DNA of 11,685 nt from contig CAZTYU010000003.1 in NCBI GenBank assembly GCA_964617535.1, positions 1,186-12,870 of the forward strand, read 5' to 3'. This document shows, piece after piece, positions 3,342 through 11,685 of the stretch. Position numbers and translations under genes: made by a program. The notes under the pieces are model-generated. The model did no database searches. It was not told where the DNA came from and was given only the letters and a program-made list of their open reading frames with translations. This stretch comes from an uncultured Bdellovibrionales bacterium (GTDB taxonomy: Bacteria > Patescibacteriota > Minisyncoccia > Moranbacterales > UBA1568). The stretch's first letter is position 1. Each line of letters starts with the position of its first letter.

Positions 3342-4865
3342 CTACTCCTTGTGTTTGGCGTGATCACGCTTTTCTTTCTCGAGGCGCTCCTTCTCCTCTT
3401 CTTCCTCGTCATCCTCGTCCGGCTTCGGGAGCGGGATGCCGTTCGGACCCATGAGCGCGGTGTTTGCCTTCAGGATCTTCTTGGCGGCATCGACGAGCTT
3501 GTCCTGGATGACCGTCTCCTGCGTGCCGGACACCATATCCTTCACGATCGCCGTACCGTCGAGCGCTTCTTTCTGCCCGATGATGATGGTCACCTCGACG
3601 CCGAGGCGGTTCGCGACACGGAGCTGGCTTTTCAGCGTACCGCGACCGAACGATTCTGCGATGAGGATACCATTTTTCTCGAGGTCGGCGAAGAGCCGGA
3701 GCGATTTCTTTTTCGCCATGTCACCGAGCTGAGCGAGAAAAACGCGCGGCTTCGGCTCGACATACGGCTTCACCTGGGTCCGCTTCATCTCGAGGATGAT
3801 GCGATCGAGGCCGAGACCGAAACCGATGGCCGGGGTCGGTTCGCCGCCGAGCGACTGGACGAGCCGGTCATAGCGACCGCCGCCGCCGAGGGAGTAGGCC
3901 CGGCCCTCTTTGTCCGTTGATCGGATCTCGAAGACCGTGCGGGTGTAGTAGTCGAGGCCGCGGACGAGCCGGGTGTTGATCGTGTACGGGAGTTCGAGCT
4001 CGTCGAGGTATTCGAGCAGGCGCTTGAAGTGATCGCGCGATTCCTGATCGAGGTAGTCGAGGGACTGCGGCGCGTGCGTCGTGATTTGGATGCACTTCTC
4101 TTCCTTGCAGTCGAGGATGCGCATCGGATTCGTCGCGAGCCGCTCCTTGCAGTTCTGGCAGAGGCGGTGTTTCTGGCTCTCCAAGTAGCGGACGAGGACT
4201 TTCTCGTAGTCACGGCGCGATTCGGGCGTACCGATGGAATTCACCTGGAATTCGATGTTCTTCAGCCCCAGGTCACGAACAACACGGAACGCGAGCTGGA
4301 TCACCTGGGCGTCGAGGATCGGATCTTCTTCACCAAAGACGTCGAAATTGGCCTGCCAGAATTCGCGGTAGCGGCCTTCCTGCGGACGATCATAGCGGTA
4401 GACCGGACCCATGGAGAACAGCTTGATCGGCTTCGAGAGCACCCCCATGCCATGCTGGATATACGCGCGGACGACGCCAGCGGTGAATTCCGGCCGGAGG
4501 GCGACGCGATCCCCGCCGCGGGTGTTGAAAACATACATTTCCTTGTCGATGATGTCCGTCCCTTCGCCGACCGAGCGAGTGAAGAGGTGAGCGTACTCGA
4601 CGAGCGGCGTATCGATGCGGCGATAGCCGTACTCGAGCTGCGCGTGCGAAAGGATGCGGCGAACCCGCTCCCAATACGGCTGCTCATCCGGGAGGATGTC
4701 GCGCATGCCGCGAAGCGCCTGGAGGAGGATCTCCTCCTGCATGAGGGCGGGCGCAGCCGGAGCCGGCTTGGCGGCCTTTTTCGCAGCCGGAGCCTTCTTC
4801 GGAGCGGCTTTCTTGGCGGCTGGGGCTTTCTTCTCGGTTTCCTTCTTCTTCGTCGTCTTGGCCAT
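3342..4865 (-). CDS. hisS: Histidine--tRNA ligase (class II aaRS) carrying a ~40-aa Lys/Ala/Pro-rich N-terminal extension and an acidic C-terminal tail
   Basis: Contains ...ALRGMRDILPDE... (motif 1 region), the HisRS-type anticodon-binding domain, and ...LGGGGRYDRLV... (motif 3, GGGRYD). Overall length and order match HisRS. The N-terminus MAKTTKKKETEKKAPAAKKAAPKKAPAAKKAAKPAPAAP precedes a canonical start-like MQEEILLQALRGM. The C-terminus ends ...KPDEDDEEEEEKERLEKEKRDHAKHKE. Confidence 0.9.
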   Translation of the reverse strand: MAKTTKKKETEKKAPAAKKAAPKKAPAAKKAAKPAPAAPALMQEEILLQALRGMRDILPDEQPYWERVRRILSHAQLEYGYRRIDTPLVEYAHLFTRSVGEGTDIIDKEMYVFNTRGGDRVALRPEFTAGVVRAYIQHGMGVLSKPIKLFSMGPVYRYDRPQEGRYREFWQANFDVFGEEDPILDAQVIQLAFRVVRDLGLKNIEFQVNSIGTPESRRDYEKVLVRYLESQKHRLCQNCKERLATNPMRILDCKEEKCIQITTHAPQSLDYLDQESRDHFKRLLEYLDELELPYTINTRLVRGLDYYTRTVFEIRSTDKEGRAYSLGGGGRYDRLVQSLGGEPTPAIGFGLGLDRIILEMKRTQVKPYVEPKPRVFLAQLGDMAKKKSLRLFADLEKNGILIAESFGRGTLKSQLRVANRLGVEVTIIIGQKEALDGTAIVKDMVSGTQETVIQDKLVDAAKKILKANTALMGPNGIPLPKPDEDDEEEEEKERLEKEKRDHAKHKE

Positions 4866-7736: not shown

Positions 7737-7744
7737 CGCGAAAG

Positions 7745-7783
7745 AAACGAAAACCCGCCCGAAAAAACGGGCGGGTTTTTATT
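7745..7783. terminator. Bidirectional rho-independent terminator after pth
   Basis: aaacgaaaa-CCCGCCCG-aaaaaa-CGGGCGGG-tttttatt. It has an 8-bp GC stem, a 6-nt loop, a T-run on the plus side and an A-run on the other side. It starts 9 nt after the pth stop. Confidence 0.75.
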
Positions 7784-7928
7784 CGGCTGAAGAAGAGAGT
7801 TCCGCCAAAGGCCGGCAGTAGGAGGGTACTACCAACTCTGGACGGAACTGTCGCCTCCAGCACTCGGAAGAGGCTGCTTTTGTTTGCACCACCCTAGCGT
7901 CAAAACTACTCCCTGTCAATACTCGCCC

Positions 7929-7960
7929 AAGAAAAAAGCCGGATAGCACTAGCTACCGGC
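7929..7960 (-). terminator. Rho-independent terminator after the second small membrane protein gene (minus strand)
   Basis: Minus strand: GCCGGTAGC-tagt-GCTA(t)CCGGC followed by TTTTTTCTT. It lies ~20 nt downstream of the stop at 7980. Confidence 0.6.
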
Positions 7961-7979
7961 CAAACGGACGCGAAGCGGT

Positions 7980-8360
7980 TCATGACGCGTCACGCGGACG
8001 AGAGCCCATCACCGTGACGAGCATCTGGTACGCGGCGATCGATGCGATCGCCATGAGCGCGAGTAGGCAGGCGATCAGGCTCCACTCGGCGTGGAAATAC
8101 ACGATCAGGATGGGCGAGACGGCGAACACCATGAGGCGCGGAAAGAGGCGGTATTTATCCGCAAACGTTTCCTGAGTCGCCCAGACGACTGCGAGATACA
8201 GGACGAATCCCGTACCGATGCCATGGACGAACGCTTCGGCTGAAGCTTCGCCTGGCTCCGTCAGGAGCACATACCCCGTGAGACCGATGCACATCGGGAT
8301 CGCCACCATGAGACCACCGAGAACGAGCGCAGCTATCCAGTAAAGAACGAGCTTTCCCAT
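7980..8360 (-). CDS. Small 4-TM integral membrane protein (126 aa), unknown function, paralog B
   Basis: The ORF-track ORF 7980..8405 is trimmed to ATG 8360 (MGKLVLYWIAALVLGG...), which is preceded by AAAGGAGG at 5 nt. It has four hydrophobic segments and GC3-rich codons. A conserved promoter/leader cassette lies upstream (see findings). Confidence 0.65.
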   Translation of the reverse strand: MGKLVLYWIAALVLGGLMVAIPMCIGLTGYVLLTEPGEASAEAFVHGIGTGFVLYLAVVWATQETFADKYRLFPRLMVFAVSPILIVYFHAEWSLIACLLALMAIASIAAYQMLVTVMGSRPRDAS

Positions 8361-8395
8361 GATCCCCTCCTTTCGTAGCGGCTGTGGGATGACTG

Positions 8396-8424
8396 ATACT
8401 CGCACCCGTCCTGAAAAATGTCAA
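8396..8424 (-). promoter_or_regulatory. Putative sigma70-type promoter (cassette copy 2): TTGACA-17nt-GAGTAT, for membrane protein B
   Basis: -35 TTGACA (plus 8419..8424 as tgtcaa) is embedded in the conserved 17-mer TTTTTCTTTTGACATTT. The -10 GAGTAT (plus 8396..8401) follows after a 17-nt spacer. The copy-1 promoter has identical spacing. Confidence 0.5.
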
Positions 8425-8461
8425 AAGAAAAACCGGCGCCCTCTCTCGAGAGAAGCGCCGG
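8423..8461 (-). terminator. Rho-independent terminator (cassette copy 2) after membrane protein A
   Basis: Minus strand: CCGGCGC-ttctc-TCGA-gagag-GGCGCCGG (a long, nearly perfect hairpin) followed by TTTTTCTTTT. Confidence 0.7.
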
Positions 8462-8488
8462 GAAACTTGGGGGGGTGCCGTCACACCG

Positions 8489-8869
8489 TCACGCGCCGGC
8501 TGACTTCCGGTGGCTCACCATCACTTGGTAGACCGCCGGGACAGCCAGAACCGCGAGCACGACCAGCGTGGCGAAGTAGGTGAAGCCGAACGTCGGCATG
8601 AGCCAAGCGACCGCCGTCGGCAACGCCAGGAAGAACAGGAAACGCTTCATGGGCGACACCGCCTTCGCCGGGATGCCGAGCGCGACGACCGCAGTGATCG
8701 TCACAAACAGCATGAGCGAGAAGTAGGCCGCGACGCGCACGTCGACCGGGACGGCACGCGTGATCTTGGTTGCCTCGACGTACAGGACCGGGGCGAACAG
8801 CATCACGAAGAGCGCGAGCGTCGCGCTGAGGAGCGTGGCGAAGAAAAGGTACAGGATCGTCTTTCCCAT
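8489..8869 (-). CDS. Small 4-TM integral membrane protein (126 aa), unknown function, paralog A
   Basis: ORF-track ORF. MGKTILYLFFATLLSATLALFVMLF..., four hydrophobic helices. AAAGGAGG lies 9 nt upstream of the ATG. It has the same length and MGK start as paralog B but is only weakly similar otherwise. Confidence 0.65.
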   Translation of the reverse strand: MGKTILYLFFATLLSATLALFVMLFAPVLYVEATKITRAVPVDVRVAAYFSLMLFVTITAVVALGIPAKAVSPMKRFLFFLALPTAVAWLMPTFGFTYFATLVVLAVLAVPAVYQVMVSHRKSAGA

Positions 8870-8905
8870 TTGGGATGCCTCCTTTGCATGAAGATGGGAT
8901 GCCTG

Positions 8906-8934
8906 ATATTTGCATCTCCCCCACTAAATGTCAA
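8906..8934 (-). promoter_or_regulatory. Putative sigma70-type promoter (cassette copy 1): TTGACA-17nt-AAATAT (preceded by TGc), for membrane protein A
   Basis: -35 TTGACA (plus 8929..8934) lies inside the same 17-mer TTTTTCTTTTGACATTT. After a 17-nt spacer comes AAATAT (plus 8906..8911), with TG at -15/-14. Confidence 0.5.
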
Positions 8935-8970
8935 AAGAAAAAGGCCCCGTTTCCTTTCGGATTCGGGGCC
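8933..8970 (-). terminator. Rho-independent terminator (cassette copy 1) ending the flotillin operon
   Basis: Minus strand: GGCCCCG-aatccgaaaggaaa-CGGGGCC followed by TTTTTCTTTT. It lies ~45 nt after the stop of the 73-aa gene. Confidence 0.7.
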
Positions 8971-9017
8971 CGTGCTTCATGCGGCGTTGCCGCTGAAACA
9001 ATTGATGACCTACTGGG

Positions 9018-9239
9018 TCAGCCGGCGGTGGCTCCCGCCTCGGCCGGTGACGCAGCAGTCGGGTTCACGTCAGGGTCGTTGTGGCAGACGCAGCCGTGCA
9101 TGGTCTCGCTGCCGCCGTAGTCGCTCGGCTTGAGCCAGGCGTAGCGACCACCGCACATGCAGCTGGACGGGACGATCTTCCAGCCTTGGATGAGCGCGAT
9201 GGCCCACTTCTGCGGAAGTTGATCGGACATGATGGGCAT
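9018..9239 (-). CDS. Small Cys/His/Met-rich protein (73 aa), putative metal-binding, translationally coupled to the flotillin gene
   Basis: ATG 9239..9237 (MPIMSDQLPQKWAIALIQGWKIVPSSCMCGGRYAWLKPSDYGGSETMHGCVCHNDPDVNPTAASPAEAGATAG). AAGGAG lies 7 nt upstream and is formed by the flotillin's final Lys-Glu codons (ACC AAG GAG TGA cggc ATG). Codons are strongly GC3-biased like real genes here. A terminator follows. Confidence 0.55.
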   Translation of the reverse strand: MPIMSDQLPQKWAIALIQGWKIVPSSCMCGGRYAWLKPSDYGGSETMHGCVCHNDPDVNPTAASPAEAGATAG

Positions 9240-9243
9240 GCCG

Positions 9244-11343
9244 TCACTCCTTGGTCTTGGCCGCAGGAGCCGGCGCGGGAGCAGGCTTGGGAGTCGTTGT
9301 GCTCGCCATGCCGTCGCGCACCAGGTTGGCCAGGAGCACGTCGACCAAGGTCCCGCCGTTGGCACCGGAGGCGCCGCCGGAAACGAGGATCTCGGGGACC
9401 AGCTTCATGCCCGCCTTGCCGGCATCGGACAGCGCCTGCGCGACCTGCACGATCGCGTAGTTGCCCGCGTCCATCGACTCGATCTTCTGCTTGATGACCT
9501 TCGCCTCGGCCTCACCGATCGCCAGGGTTCTCCCAGCTTCGGCTTCACCGGTGACTCGCGTCACTTGGGCGTCGGCATCCGCGTTGATCTTCTTCGCCTT
9601 GGCCGCGCCATCTGCCGTCTTCACCGCTGCTTGGGCGTTGAAGTCCGCGATCTCGACGGACCGTTCGGCGGTCACGACGCTTGCCTGGGTGTCGGCCTGC
9701 GCAGTGGCCTGCTCGAGCTGCTTGCGCGTCTCCTGTGCCTGCCGCTGCGTGTCGAAGGTCACCTTCTGCTGTTCGGCGACCTTGCGGTCGGTCAGCGTCT
9801 GCATCAGCTCGGCTGGCGGGTTGATGTCACCGATGAGCGTCTCGACCGCCTGGACGTTGTACGTCCGGAGTGCCGCGGAGATGGCGGTCTTGGCTTCTTC
9901 TTGCCGCTGGCTGCGCTCCTTCAGGAAGCCGATGACGTCGGAGCTCTGGGCGGCGTTGCGGAAGTAGTTGCCGATGGTCGGTTCGAGCACCTGCGTGACC
10001 AGCGCCTCCATGCTCCCGAAGCGGGCGATCACCTTGGGGGCGTCATTCCGCGGGATATGGATGATCTGGCTCACGTCGAGGTTGAACGTGAAGCCATCGG
10101 CCGAGCGGACCGTGATGGTCGAGAGGTTGGCGTCGAGCTTGTGGCTCTCCGTCTTCGCCGTCGCCCAGTTGAGGACGACGTTCGCCGTCGGCACCACCCG
10201 CACCTTGTGGGTGTAGGGGTTGATCGGGTACTTGCCCGGATCGAGCACGTCGTTCCAGACGCCCTTCTGGCCGCGTTGCACCAGGTTGCCCTGGGTGAAC
10301 TGGTCACCGGTCACGTCTTGCCCCTGGCTGCCCACGAACGCAACCACCACGCCGACCGATGCGATTGGCACCTCGGTCATGTCCTGCTGTTCCACCGTGG
10401 CGAACTTCGGGTTGATGAAGTAGCGACCCGCGAGCAGCACTTGCTCCTGGAGACCCTTCTTGCCGCCGTTCGCGAGGAAGGCGTTCGGGTTCTGGAACAT
10501 GTTGTGGTTCGCGGTTTCCGGACCGGCGATCTCGCCGGTTGCGAGCGCTTCGCCTTCCTTCGTCGTCACGATCCCGACCTTGTTCTCGGGGATGTCGATG
10601 ACGTCGGCCATCTCGACCTTGAACAGCACCGGGTTGATCCGGTACTGCCCCTGGGGGATGATGGTTGCCTGCGCACCACGTTCACCGCTCACCATGAACG
10701 CCTTGGCGTCCTGGAAGAGGTCGCACTCGACGTGCTTGGCGATGATGCGGCCGGTCGGAAGCGCGGCGCCATCCTTGGCTTCGACGACGCCGATCTTGCC
10801 CGCCGGGATGACGGTCATCTCCTTGGTCTCCACCGTGAAGACCTTCTTGTTGATCCGCCAAGAGCCCGGGGGGATCAGCGCCATCTGAGGACCACGCTGG
10901 CCACCCTTCGAGAGGAAGGCCCGCGCGTCCTGGAAGTCGTCGCATTCGACCTGCTGGCCGATGATGCGCCCCGCCGGAAGCGGTTCACCGTCACAGGATT
11001 CCACGACGCCGATGCGGCCCGGGGGGATCACGGTGAACTTCTCGAATTCGACCACGAACTGCCACGGCCAGTAGAAGAAGTGGAGTCCGGGCGCGAGTGC
11101 GTCGGCCTGGACGCCGGCCTCGCCGTTCAGGGCGATGACCTTGCCGGGCGGCAGCTCGCGGTTCGAGCCGAAGATCACGAACTTCTTCGTCACCAGACCG
11201 ATGCTGTCATCGGGGATGATGACGATGCCGAAGAGGCGGAGGACCTGCTTGTAGAACAGGACCGCCAAGGCCAGAACGACGACGGTGGCGATGAGGCCAC
11301 CATAGCCGAAGAGACCTGAAAGGAGGGAGAGTGCGTATTCCAT
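9244..11343 (-). CDS. Flotillin-like SPFH/band-7 protein (699 aa) with an N-terminal TM anchor, a tandemly repeated SPFH N-terminal beta-segment, a complete SPFH domain and a long Glu/Ala-rich coiled-coil flotillin tail
   Basis: N-terminal membrane anchor (LLSGLFGYGGLIATVVVLALAVLF). Four ~75-aa repeats follow, each with I-P-x-G-x-x-G-V-V / G-x-x-L-x-x-G-x-I / ECD-x-FQDA-x-AF / PG-x-YRINP / F-x-VE. Then a canonical SPFH core (...DVSQIIHIPRNDAPKVIARFGS...LEPTIGNYFRNAAQ...) and a flotillin-type EA-rich coiled coil (...AEAGRTLAIGEAEAKVIKQKIESMDAGNYAIVQVAQALSD...). This is similar to FloT/YqiK-type proteins. The C-terminus is TTTPKPAPAPAPAAKTKE. Confidence 0.85.
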   Translation of the reverse strand: MEYALSLLSGLFGYGGLIATVVVLALAVLFYKQVLRLFGIVIIPDDSIGLVTKKFVIFGSNRELPPGKVIALNGEAGVQADALAPGLHFFYWPWQFVVEFEKFTVIPPGRIGVVESCDGEPLPAGRIIGQQVECDDFQDARAFLSKGGQRGPQMALIPPGSWRINKKVFTVETKEMTVIPAGKIGVVEAKDGAALPTGRIIAKHVECDLFQDAKAFMVSGERGAQATIIPQGQYRINPVLFKVEMADVIDIPENKVGIVTTKEGEALATGEIAGPETANHNMFQNPNAFLANGGKKGLQEQVLLAGRYFINPKFATVEQQDMTEVPIASVGVVVAFVGSQGQDVTGDQFTQGNLVQRGQKGVWNDVLDPGKYPINPYTHKVRVVPTANVVLNWATAKTESHKLDANLSTITVRSADGFTFNLDVSQIIHIPRNDAPKVIARFGSMEALVTQVLEPTIGNYFRNAAQSSDVIGFLKERSQRQEEAKTAISAALRTYNVQAVETLIGDINPPAELMQTLTDRKVAEQQKVTFDTQRQAQETRKQLEQATAQADTQASVVTAERSVEIADFNAQAAVKTADGAAKAKKINADADAQVTRVTGEAEAGRTLAIGEAEAKVIKQKIESMDAGNYAIVQVAQALSDAGKAGMKLVPEILVSGGASGANGGTLVDVLLANLVRDGMASTTTPKPAPAPAPAAKTKE
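10378..11037 (-). repeat. Intragenic tandem repeats (3 full ~225-240-bp units, aa 103-322) within the flotillin gene, conserved at DNA level
   Basis: For example, plus-strand ...gcgtcctggaagaggtcgcactcgacgtgcttggcgatgatgcggccggtcggaagcgcggcgccatccttggcttcgacgacgccgatcttgcccgccgggatgacggtcat... (~10695-10810) against ...gcgcgtcctggaagtcgtcgcattcgacctgctggccgatgatgcgccccgccggaagcggttcaccgtcacaggattccacgacgccgatgcggcccggggggatcacggtgaa... (~10925-11040). Flanking half-repeats extend the repeated region to ~10165..11223. Confidence 0.65.
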
Positions 11344-11362
11344 GATTCAGAGATTCCTTCTG

Positions 11363-11638
11363 CTAGAACTTGAGTTGCTTGGATTCTTCGTCGCCCGGCT
11401 GGAGGAAACGCGCCTTGAATGCGCGCCACCCCTGCTTCTTGCGAAGCTCGCCGAGCACCACCTGCATCCCGTGTTCCGGCCACGTCTCTTCTTGCCAGAC
11501 CTTGCGGTCTCGGCTGAGCGAAAACGTGATCGTCCCAGAGACGCCACGAGCGGTGGCGATTGCGTACGGATAGCGATCGCGGACGACCGACTGGACCGTG
11601 GCAATGACCACTTCCCTTCTTGATGATTCTTGGCTCAC
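11363..11638 (-). CDS. Hypothetical soluble protein (91 aa), first gene of the flotillin operon
   Basis: The ORF-track ORF starts at a TTG at 11683. The in-frame GTG at 11638..11636 is preceded by GAAAGGAG at 7 nt and is the likelier start (VSQESSRREVVIATVQSVVRDRYPYAIATARGVSGTITFSLSRDRKVWQEETWPEHGMQVVLGELRKKQGWRAFKARFLQPGDEESKQLKF). It has no TM, stops 19 nt before the flotillin ATG, and has GC3-rich codons. The family was not recognised. The ORF could extend beyond the window edge. Confidence 0.5.
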   Translation of the reverse strand: MSQESSRREVVIATVQSVVRDRYPYAIATARGVSGTITFSLSRDRKVWQEETWPEHGMQVVLGELRKKQGWRAFKARFLQPGDEESKQLKF

Positions 11639-11685
11639 ATGAGCGCTCCTTTCTGAATGGGTATCGTACCCGTTAGTTGTCAAAG

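Follow-up and report, generated by a model that had tools for sequence, protein, structure and literature searches.

Several described systems resemble parts of the locus analyzed here. Tandem paralogs of small proteins with four transmembrane helices are known as paired small multidrug resistance (SMR) transporters, such as EbrAB and YkkCD. RNA thermometers and the 5′-terminal stabilizer hairpins of Bacillus mRNAs are examples of short 5′ untranslated regions (UTRs) whose 5′ end pairs with the region where translation starts, and trans-acting small RNAs (sRNAs) of the RsaE/RoxS and RNAIII types use C-rich apical loops to pair with Shine–Dalgarno (SD) sequences. We studied a stretch of 11,685 nt (the window) from an uncultured Bdellovibrionales bacterium (assembly GCA_964617535.1, contig CAZTYU010000003.1, positions 1,186 to 12,870 of the forward strand; Patescibacteriota in GTDB), in which two tandem minus-strand open reading frames (ORFs), A (8489..8869) and B (7980..8360), encode membrane proteins of 126 aa each and are preceded by similar promoter–leader sequences. 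Our favored account is that the unit was duplicated long ago, that selection has held its promoter and a start-proximal element in place, and that the 5′ end of both mRNAs would pair with the start codon. Taken as a whole, we consider this account probable.

The region is made up of three consecutive minus-strand transcription units, each with its own terminator; all features of these units are given on that strand. The first starts at terminator T1 (8932..8971; hairpin 8971..8942, including a terminal G–U pair), which ends an upstream variable island (73-aa gene). The U-tract of T1, TTTTTCTTTT (8942..8933), leads into the predicted promoter of A (8906..8934), with TTGACA at 8934..8929, a 17-bp spacer, TGC at 8914..8912 and the −10 hexamer AAATAT at 8911..8906. 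The leader of A follows (8870..8905), carrying CAG-n-CATCCCA at 8905..8895, with a putative transcription start at A8900, and the SD sequence AAAGGAGG at 8885..8878. After gene A comes terminator T2 (8425..8461; hairpin 8461..8433), whose U-tract (8432..8425) continues into the −35 hexamer of the next promoter. This predicted promoter of B (8396..8424) has TTGACA at 8424..8419, a 17-bp spacer, TGC at 8404..8402 and the −10 hexamer GAGTAT at 8401..8396, and the leader of B (8361..8395) has CAG-n-CATCCCA at 8395..8385, a putative start at A8390 and the SD sequence AAAGGAGG(GGATC) at 8373..8361. Both genes have a strong SD, AAAGGAGG, lengthened in B to GGAGGGGAUC. Gene B is followed by terminator T3 (7929..7961; hairpin 7961..7937, then a U-tract).

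The sequences quoted in a preliminary description of this DNA were all located at the minus-strand coordinates it gave, among them the 17-mer TTTTTCTTTTGACATTT, identical in both copies (8942..8926 and 8432..8416). No other exact direct repeat in the window is as long, and only one of 200 first-order Markov simulations reached this length; a repeat search of the window placed the 17-mer within a wider repeat of 48 nt with 77% identity, the copies lying 510 nt apart. The window has exactly two occurrences of the leader motif ATCAGnCATCCC (0.25 expected by chance). The proposal that the U-tract of the preceding terminator runs into a consensus −35 with 17-bp spacing holds in both copies, and each gene indeed forms a self-contained terminator–promoter–leader–gene unit. 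Two details of that description were borne out only in part. A third terminator after B is present as a hairpin with a U-tract (7929–7961); it had been called degenerate, and it folds well. A direct repeat, GGCATCCCA, does flank the SD of A, but its second copy, between the SD and the ATG, is not conserved, being found only in the window and in one relative (L010) and not in three others that carry A (L006, L016 and L020).

Terminators T1, T2 and T3 have folding energies of −22.8, −20.4 and −16.2 kcal/mol (z = −4.0, −2.9 and −3.0), and T4 (7779..7750), shared by the third unit and pth, reaches −24.3 kcal/mol (z = −6.1). All four are GC-rich hairpins with a U-tract, with at least five U after each, as expected of intrinsic terminators. 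The T1 hairpin module upstream of A is conserved in the window, L010, L016 and L020; at the position of T2, orthologous loci keep a hairpin and differ in its sequence. The promoters resemble σ70 extended −10 (TGn) promoters abutting terminators: they share TTGACA, the 17-bp spacer, TG one base before the hexamer, A−11 and T−7. The terminator U-tract also provides the T-rich stretch that precedes the −35, an architecture that other genes of this lineage use as well, and other promoters of the lineage (lepB, ftsZ, the S6 operon and the L010 island) also combine TTGACA with a TG(C) extended −10, without CATCCC. Judged by their sequences, the predicted promoters and the terminators of A and B are ordinary members of well-known classes. 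They differ from ordinary extended −10 promoters in the invariant third base of TGn (TGC) and in a stretch of 11 nt directly after the −10 that does not vary over a deep divergence, a constancy that ordinary promoters lack.

This invariance emerges from 26 related loci (given L numbers here). Fourteen non-redundant copies from nine genomes follow, without indels, the fixed-register consensus TTTGACA-N14-TGC-nAntAT-CAG-n-CATCCCa, and the motif precedes every readable ortholog (17 copies), at protein identities down to ~40%. It is invariant in orthologs with 40–78% protein identity, and just as much so in genomes with a single gene copy: L025, at 43%, has the full motif, and L026 has it with TTGATA as −35. 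TTGACA with a 17-bp spacer is common to the two window copies and all but one (L026) of the 16 others. The −10 hexamer, nAntAT, is preceded by an invariant TGC, i.e., it is an extended −10, and its A−11, A−8 and T−7 never change. The 14-nt spacer varies in sequence, as does the stretch between CATCCCA and the SD, which also varies in length (8–19 nt). The depth of invariance of the 13-nt start-site element ATCAG-n-CATCCCA is unusual. Four-fold degenerate sites of the orthologs are only 47–75% identical to those of the window; since the core positions of the motif remain unvarying while these synonymous sites diverge, we conclude that the core is under purifying selection.

The motif is also specific to this gene family. 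In ~130 kb of related loci, the pattern was found only upstream of A- and B-family genes. A scan of 596 Gb of species-representative genomes returned L023, which has a single B between the genes for L25 and peptidyl-tRNA hydrolase, plus one chance site in Herminiimonas; a scan of JGI metagenomes returned one match, which directly follows L25 at the end of its contig. In three loci (the starts of L013 and L005 and the end of L024), metagenome contigs break exactly within the promoter motif; a duplicated promoter block of ~50 nt would be expected to have this effect if it behaves as a repeat in assembly.

The proteins have diverged much further than this upstream DNA. A and B do not align significantly by BLASTP (E = 0.074, N-terminus only), although comparison of the two family profiles with hhalign gives a probability of 79% (E 1.6e-5) over 112 colinear columns. 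The preliminary description, which saw little in common beyond the initial MGK, length and topology, therefore understated their relationship: besides the length of 126 aa, they share an MGKxxLY start, R75/76 and P83/84, an Arg–Pro pair that precedes helix 3, and a YQ motif in helix 4. On this sequence evidence, A and B are divergent, ancient tandem paralogs. Both are under purifying selection, as indicated by dN/dS values below 1 (0.09–0.27 for B and 0.27–0.69 for A, the accessory and faster-evolving copy). Between the paralogs, dN is 0.8–0.97 and dS is 1.2–1.9; since synonymous sites are saturated, the duplication is ancient and the shared upstream DNA is not a recent copy. Identical four-fold sites between A and B range from 3/14 to 9/21, and the paralogs are 42–48% identical in coding DNA versus 77–94% in the 47-nt promoter block. 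In the window, the block is 77% identical versus 44% for codon-aligned coding DNA. The earlier claim that the upstream DNA is better conserved than the coding DNA is thus upheld, and the similarity is not part of a longer duplication with equally conserved coding parts.

Two explanations had been offered for this contrast, i.e., a recent cassette-wise duplication with rapid protein divergence, and selection on a shared regulatory leader. If the duplication were recent, the upstream DNA would simply be too young to differ, and the two units are indeed adjacent, colinear and of equal length, with promoter blocks that are 71–88% identical. Saturated synonymous sites contradict this, as do the variable spacer of the promoter, which has diverged as far as neutral DNA around invariant core positions, and the fact that A and B orthologs are each recognizable across five genomes. 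The motif is, moreover, no less conserved where only one gene copy exists. We consider a recent duplication very improbable and favor the second explanation, in which the motif is invariant across divergent orthologs because selection retains it.

Concerted evolution, by repeated gene conversion between the promoter copies within each genome, might also keep them alike. In L010 the copies are 88% identical and their spacers agree at 12 of 14 positions, against ~75% when A and B are compared across genomes, and in four of the five two-copy genomes (L006, L010, L016 and L020) both copies carry one and the same base at the variable position n. Within-genome A–B identity is no higher than between-genome identity in the window, L006 and L020 (71–77%), however, and gene conversion leaves unexplained why the motif is invariant in single-copy genomes and across ~60% protein divergence. 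As a general explanation it appears improbable. Quite likely, in our view, the complete transcription unit was duplicated long ago together with its promoter, and purifying selection has since fixed the promoter core and the start-proximal element while the proteins diverged.

The role of the start-proximal element can be read in two ways. Transcription would start at the A of CATCCC (A8900 and A8390), 6 nt after the −10, as suggested by the C(−1)A(+1) context at that distance, and both mRNAs would then begin with 5′-AUCCCA(U/C). This 5′ end would pair with (A)UGGGA, that is, with the start codon and the Gly2 codon. Such pairing would turn the short UTR into a closed loop in which the strong SD is exposed, masking the AUG and/or protecting the 5′ end, and it would give both paralogs the same post-transcriptional setting. 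In all 17 leaders, a helix of at least five contiguous pairs can join the start-codon region to the first 10 nt of the predicted transcript, and this helix is part of the minimum free energy fold of 13 of 15 leaders. The CCCA arm has changed only in L014 and L025, each time from A to G, a change that retains G–U pairs. GGA, which makes up only 11% of the Gly codons of the window genes, serves as codon 2 in 11 of the 15 leaders.

The leaders resemble start-masking or 5′-stabilizing leaders in that a predicted 5′ UCCCA(U) is complementary to (A)UGGGA in 17/17 cases, with the SD in the enclosed loop. They differ in having a helix of only 5–7 bp, with neither compensatory covariation nor thermometer-like features. 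No Rfam family reached its gathering threshold for the leaders or for the third unit; the best matches (Leu leader, 34.4 bits against a threshold of 50; rnk_pseudo, 30.4 against 55) are both driven by a hairpin-plus-terminator shape.

In the main rival account, CAG-n-CATCCC(A) may be a DNA-level site, i.e., an operator over the start for a repressor or activator, or a determinant of start-site choice or initial transcription read by RNA polymerase, so that both paralogs would be co-regulated at initiation and the complementarity to AUGGGA would be incidental. The element keeps a strict register with the −10 in 17 copies without indels while the SD distance varies over 8–19 nt, and the invariant block begins upstream of any plausible start, with the AT of the −10 followed by CAG. 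Two positions before TGC a further base is conserved, which gives some copies a weak dyad (GATG-N11-CATC), and the RNA-structure evidence is weak. On the other hand, the motif is convincing neither as a palindrome nor as a direct repeat, the relatives have no conserved transcription-factor gene beside the locus, and, to our knowledge, no known operator matches CAG-n-CATCCC(A). A DNA-level site would also leave unexplained why two independently invariant blocks are complementary and why the rare GGA codon is used. A dyad-symmetric operator, GATGC-N9-GCATC, was considered and rejected, being present in only a few copies. We hold the DNA-level site to be possible, at a tentative level.

Several observations weigh against our account. 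Promoter activity and the position of the transcription start are read from the consensus only. The leader helix is short and closes a loop of 25–35 nt, its z-scores against shuffled sequences are weak (−0.2 to −2.3), and it shows no true compensatory covariation, both arms being nearly invariant. The preference for GGA could equally be explained by a tendency toward A-rich, unstructured codons after the start, and the fixed distance between CATCCC and the −10, with 17 copies free of indels, fits a DNA-level element equally well. Genome-wide absence of further copies rests on one representative metagenome-assembled genome plus the ~130 kb of loci. Lastly, the 88% identity in L010 and the shared base n may point to occasional gene conversion. 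We put forward pairing between the 5′ end and the start codon as a tentative, rather doubtful mechanism; the leader element would act, if at all, like the start-masking or 5′-stabilizing leaders or like a start-site operator.

The third transcription unit was missed in the preliminary description. After T3 lies another predicted promoter (7891..7919), with TTGACA at 7919..7914, a 17-bp spacer and TAGGGT at 7896..7891, in which ATTGACAG and CGCTAGGGT are invariant in 11 related loci and in L025. It would drive a candidate sRNA of ~140 nt (7742..7885) that has no conserved ORF and consists of an A-rich 5′ tail, a long hairpin (7865..7782) with an invariant apical loop, CCCUCC, and the bidirectional terminator T4, shared with pth. 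In the consensus fold, 96% of cells are paired versus 33–50% in slid controls, with five pairs showing compensatory changes, and the structure is kept when L025 is added to the alignment. A covariance model built from it (R1) scores 78–101 bits on the minus strand versus 34–50 bits on the opposite strand; together with the conserved G–U pairs, these scores fix the strand of the sRNA.

The candidate is similar to RsaE/RoxS and RNAIII-type sRNAs in being a stand-alone promoter–hairpin–terminator gene with a CCCUCC loop complementary to GGAGGG. It differs from them in its single, very long hairpin in place of several C-rich loops, and it has no Rfam family at threshold. Pairing of the CCCUCC loop with the GGAGGG of the B leader in the window was rejected as an explanation for the leader motif: GGAGGG is not conserved in L014, L020, L023 and L025, and the sRNA is absent from L026. 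Pairing with CAUCCCA was rejected as well, as the sRNA contains no UGGGAUG. The candidate is present in 12 related loci; since L026 lacks it and yet has the leader motif, the two are not obligatorily coupled.

In all relatives, B-type genes lie between rplY (ribosomal protein L25/Ctc) and a convergent pth (peptidyl-tRNA hydrolase), which is followed by an LCP-family gene and then lepB, hisS, a HIT-family gene, S21, a yqeY-like gene, ybeY, dgkA, ftsA and ftsZ. B is found alone in five basal or distant relatives (L014, L018, L023, L025 and L026) and in L019; A and B occur together in a subclade made up of the window, L006, L010, L016 and L020. B is thus the core gene, present in every relative, and A is an accessory copy. 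The direct repeats flanking A would also permit its loss by recombination, which fits its patchy distribution (e.g., its absence from L019).

Between rplY and A lies a variable island (window 8975–11685, minus strand; L010 4640–7430; L016 1–1400; L003 1–200). In L006, A directly follows the L25 terminator; a flotillin operon lies between L25 and A in the window and in L020, and other genes take this place in L010 and L016. The cargo of the island is the flotillin gene and a gene for a 73-aa Cys-rich protein in the window, three unrelated genes in L010 and others in L016. The right junction is conserved, with the hairpin GCGGCAACGCCGC followed by T1. The first island gene (~91–94 aa) is common to the window (11363–11638) and L010, with 86% identity, and the rest of the island differs. 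L003 has a B identical to that of the window with L010-like sequence to the left of CAGCGGCAACGCCGC, which indicates that strains exchange the cargo of the island. The first island gene is preceded (window 11640–11685, minus strand; L010 4760–4800) by a conserved TTGACA and then, just ahead of the SD, by a palindrome, GGGTA-N3-TACCC, which may be an operator for the island's own regulation.

The flotillin-like SPFH protein (699 aa; minus-strand gene 9244–11343) carries four or five tandem repeats of ~72–74 aa N-terminal to its Band_7 domain (DNA period of 216–222 nt; window 10374–11230). The 73-aa Cys-rich ORF (CxC...CxC; 9018–9239, minus strand) directly follows the flotillin gene and is 82% identical in L020. 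No tRNA genes were found in the window. Two further observations concern repeats. A poly-C run in the 3′ UTR of A, between the stop codon and T2 (window 8470–8480, minus strand), is of unequal length in near-identical strains (7 C in the window, 8 in L005, 5 in L004 and 4 in L003), which could reflect a hypermutable homopolymer or assembly noise. The histidyl-tRNA synthetase encoded by hisS has an N-terminal extension of ~45 aa rich in Lys, Ala and Pro (KKAAPKKAPAAKKAAKPAPA; window 4760–4865, minus strand), coded by a 30-nt tandem repeat.

Holin-like or toxin-like functions, or a partnership with the adjacent flotillin, had been suggested for A and B, and with them the cassette might be a mobile or defense module. 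They are, after all, small multi-helix membrane proteins, an SPFH/flotillin gene stands beside them in the window, and A lies at the edge of the variable island. An accessory (NfeD-like) role would imply co-occurrence and co-transcription with the SPFH gene, and neither is seen: the flotillin operon is separated from A by T1, and flotillin is absent from nine loci that have B (L006, L010, L016, L014, L018, L019, L023, L025 and L026), the first three of which also have A. As it is missing or replaced in relatives, flotillin belongs to the cargo of the variable island and is no partner of either protein. As for the other functions, no family in Pfam, PHROGs, NCBIfam or PADLOC matches A or B, nor the 73-aa and 91-aa proteins. 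There is no lysin, antitoxin or phage gene nearby, the neighbors in all loci being rplY, pth, the LCP-family gene, lepB and hisS, and B keeps its chromosomal position with or without flotillin. A length of 126 aa is far above that of type I toxins, and both genes are under purifying selection. We regard this group of explanations as extremely improbable.

Paired SMR transporters are a formal parallel, as they are also adjacent, distant paralogs encoding four-helix membrane proteins of ~120 aa. This candidate was rejected too: the PF00893 signature, with its glutamate in the first transmembrane helix, is not found and there is no Pfam SMR match. A and B both show an N-in/C-in charge bias, as read from their sequences, instead of opposite topologies, and each has its own promoter and terminator, with no shared operon. 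Since B stands alone in many genomes, an obligatory A–B heterodimer is unlikely. The AlphaFold2 (AF2) model of B is a confident four-helix bundle (pLDDT 85.7, pTM 0.79); that of A is all-helical at low confidence (pLDDT 60), too poor for fold searching. No informative structural neighbors were found in the PDB. Homologs among 5.8 billion proteins fall into 5 clusters for A and 13 for B, and the B-family profile finds only 10 proteins at E < 1e-3 among 1.84 billion representatives. Several of the most distant homologs do not begin with MGK. By the tests run, A and B are an orphan family and not holins, toxins, SMR transporters or flotillin partners.

No established view is overturned by these results, which mostly reflect conventional evolution of cis-regulatory DNA. 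They do offer a clean natural case in which a promoter and a start-proximal element evolve more slowly than the proteins encoded downstream, with at least 22 positions invariant at a protein identity of ~40%. They also define an orphan four-helix membrane protein family, of ~10 representative clusters among 1.84 billion proteins, fixed beside translation genes, and flag a previously undescribed sRNA candidate. The 13-nt motif provides a handle for finding a regulator in an uncultured lineage without genetics. It is conceivable, although we think it rather unlikely, that ATCAG-n-CATCCCA is the site of a dedicated regulator (protein or RNA) and that, with the adjacent anti-SD-loop sRNA, it forms a lineage-specific circuit for this orphan membrane family. 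If this were true, the element and the sRNA would represent a new class of cis-regulatory RNA or DNA element and a new sRNA family, and they would serve a membrane protein family so essential that its place between rplY and pth is fixed in an uncultured lineage with reduced genomes.

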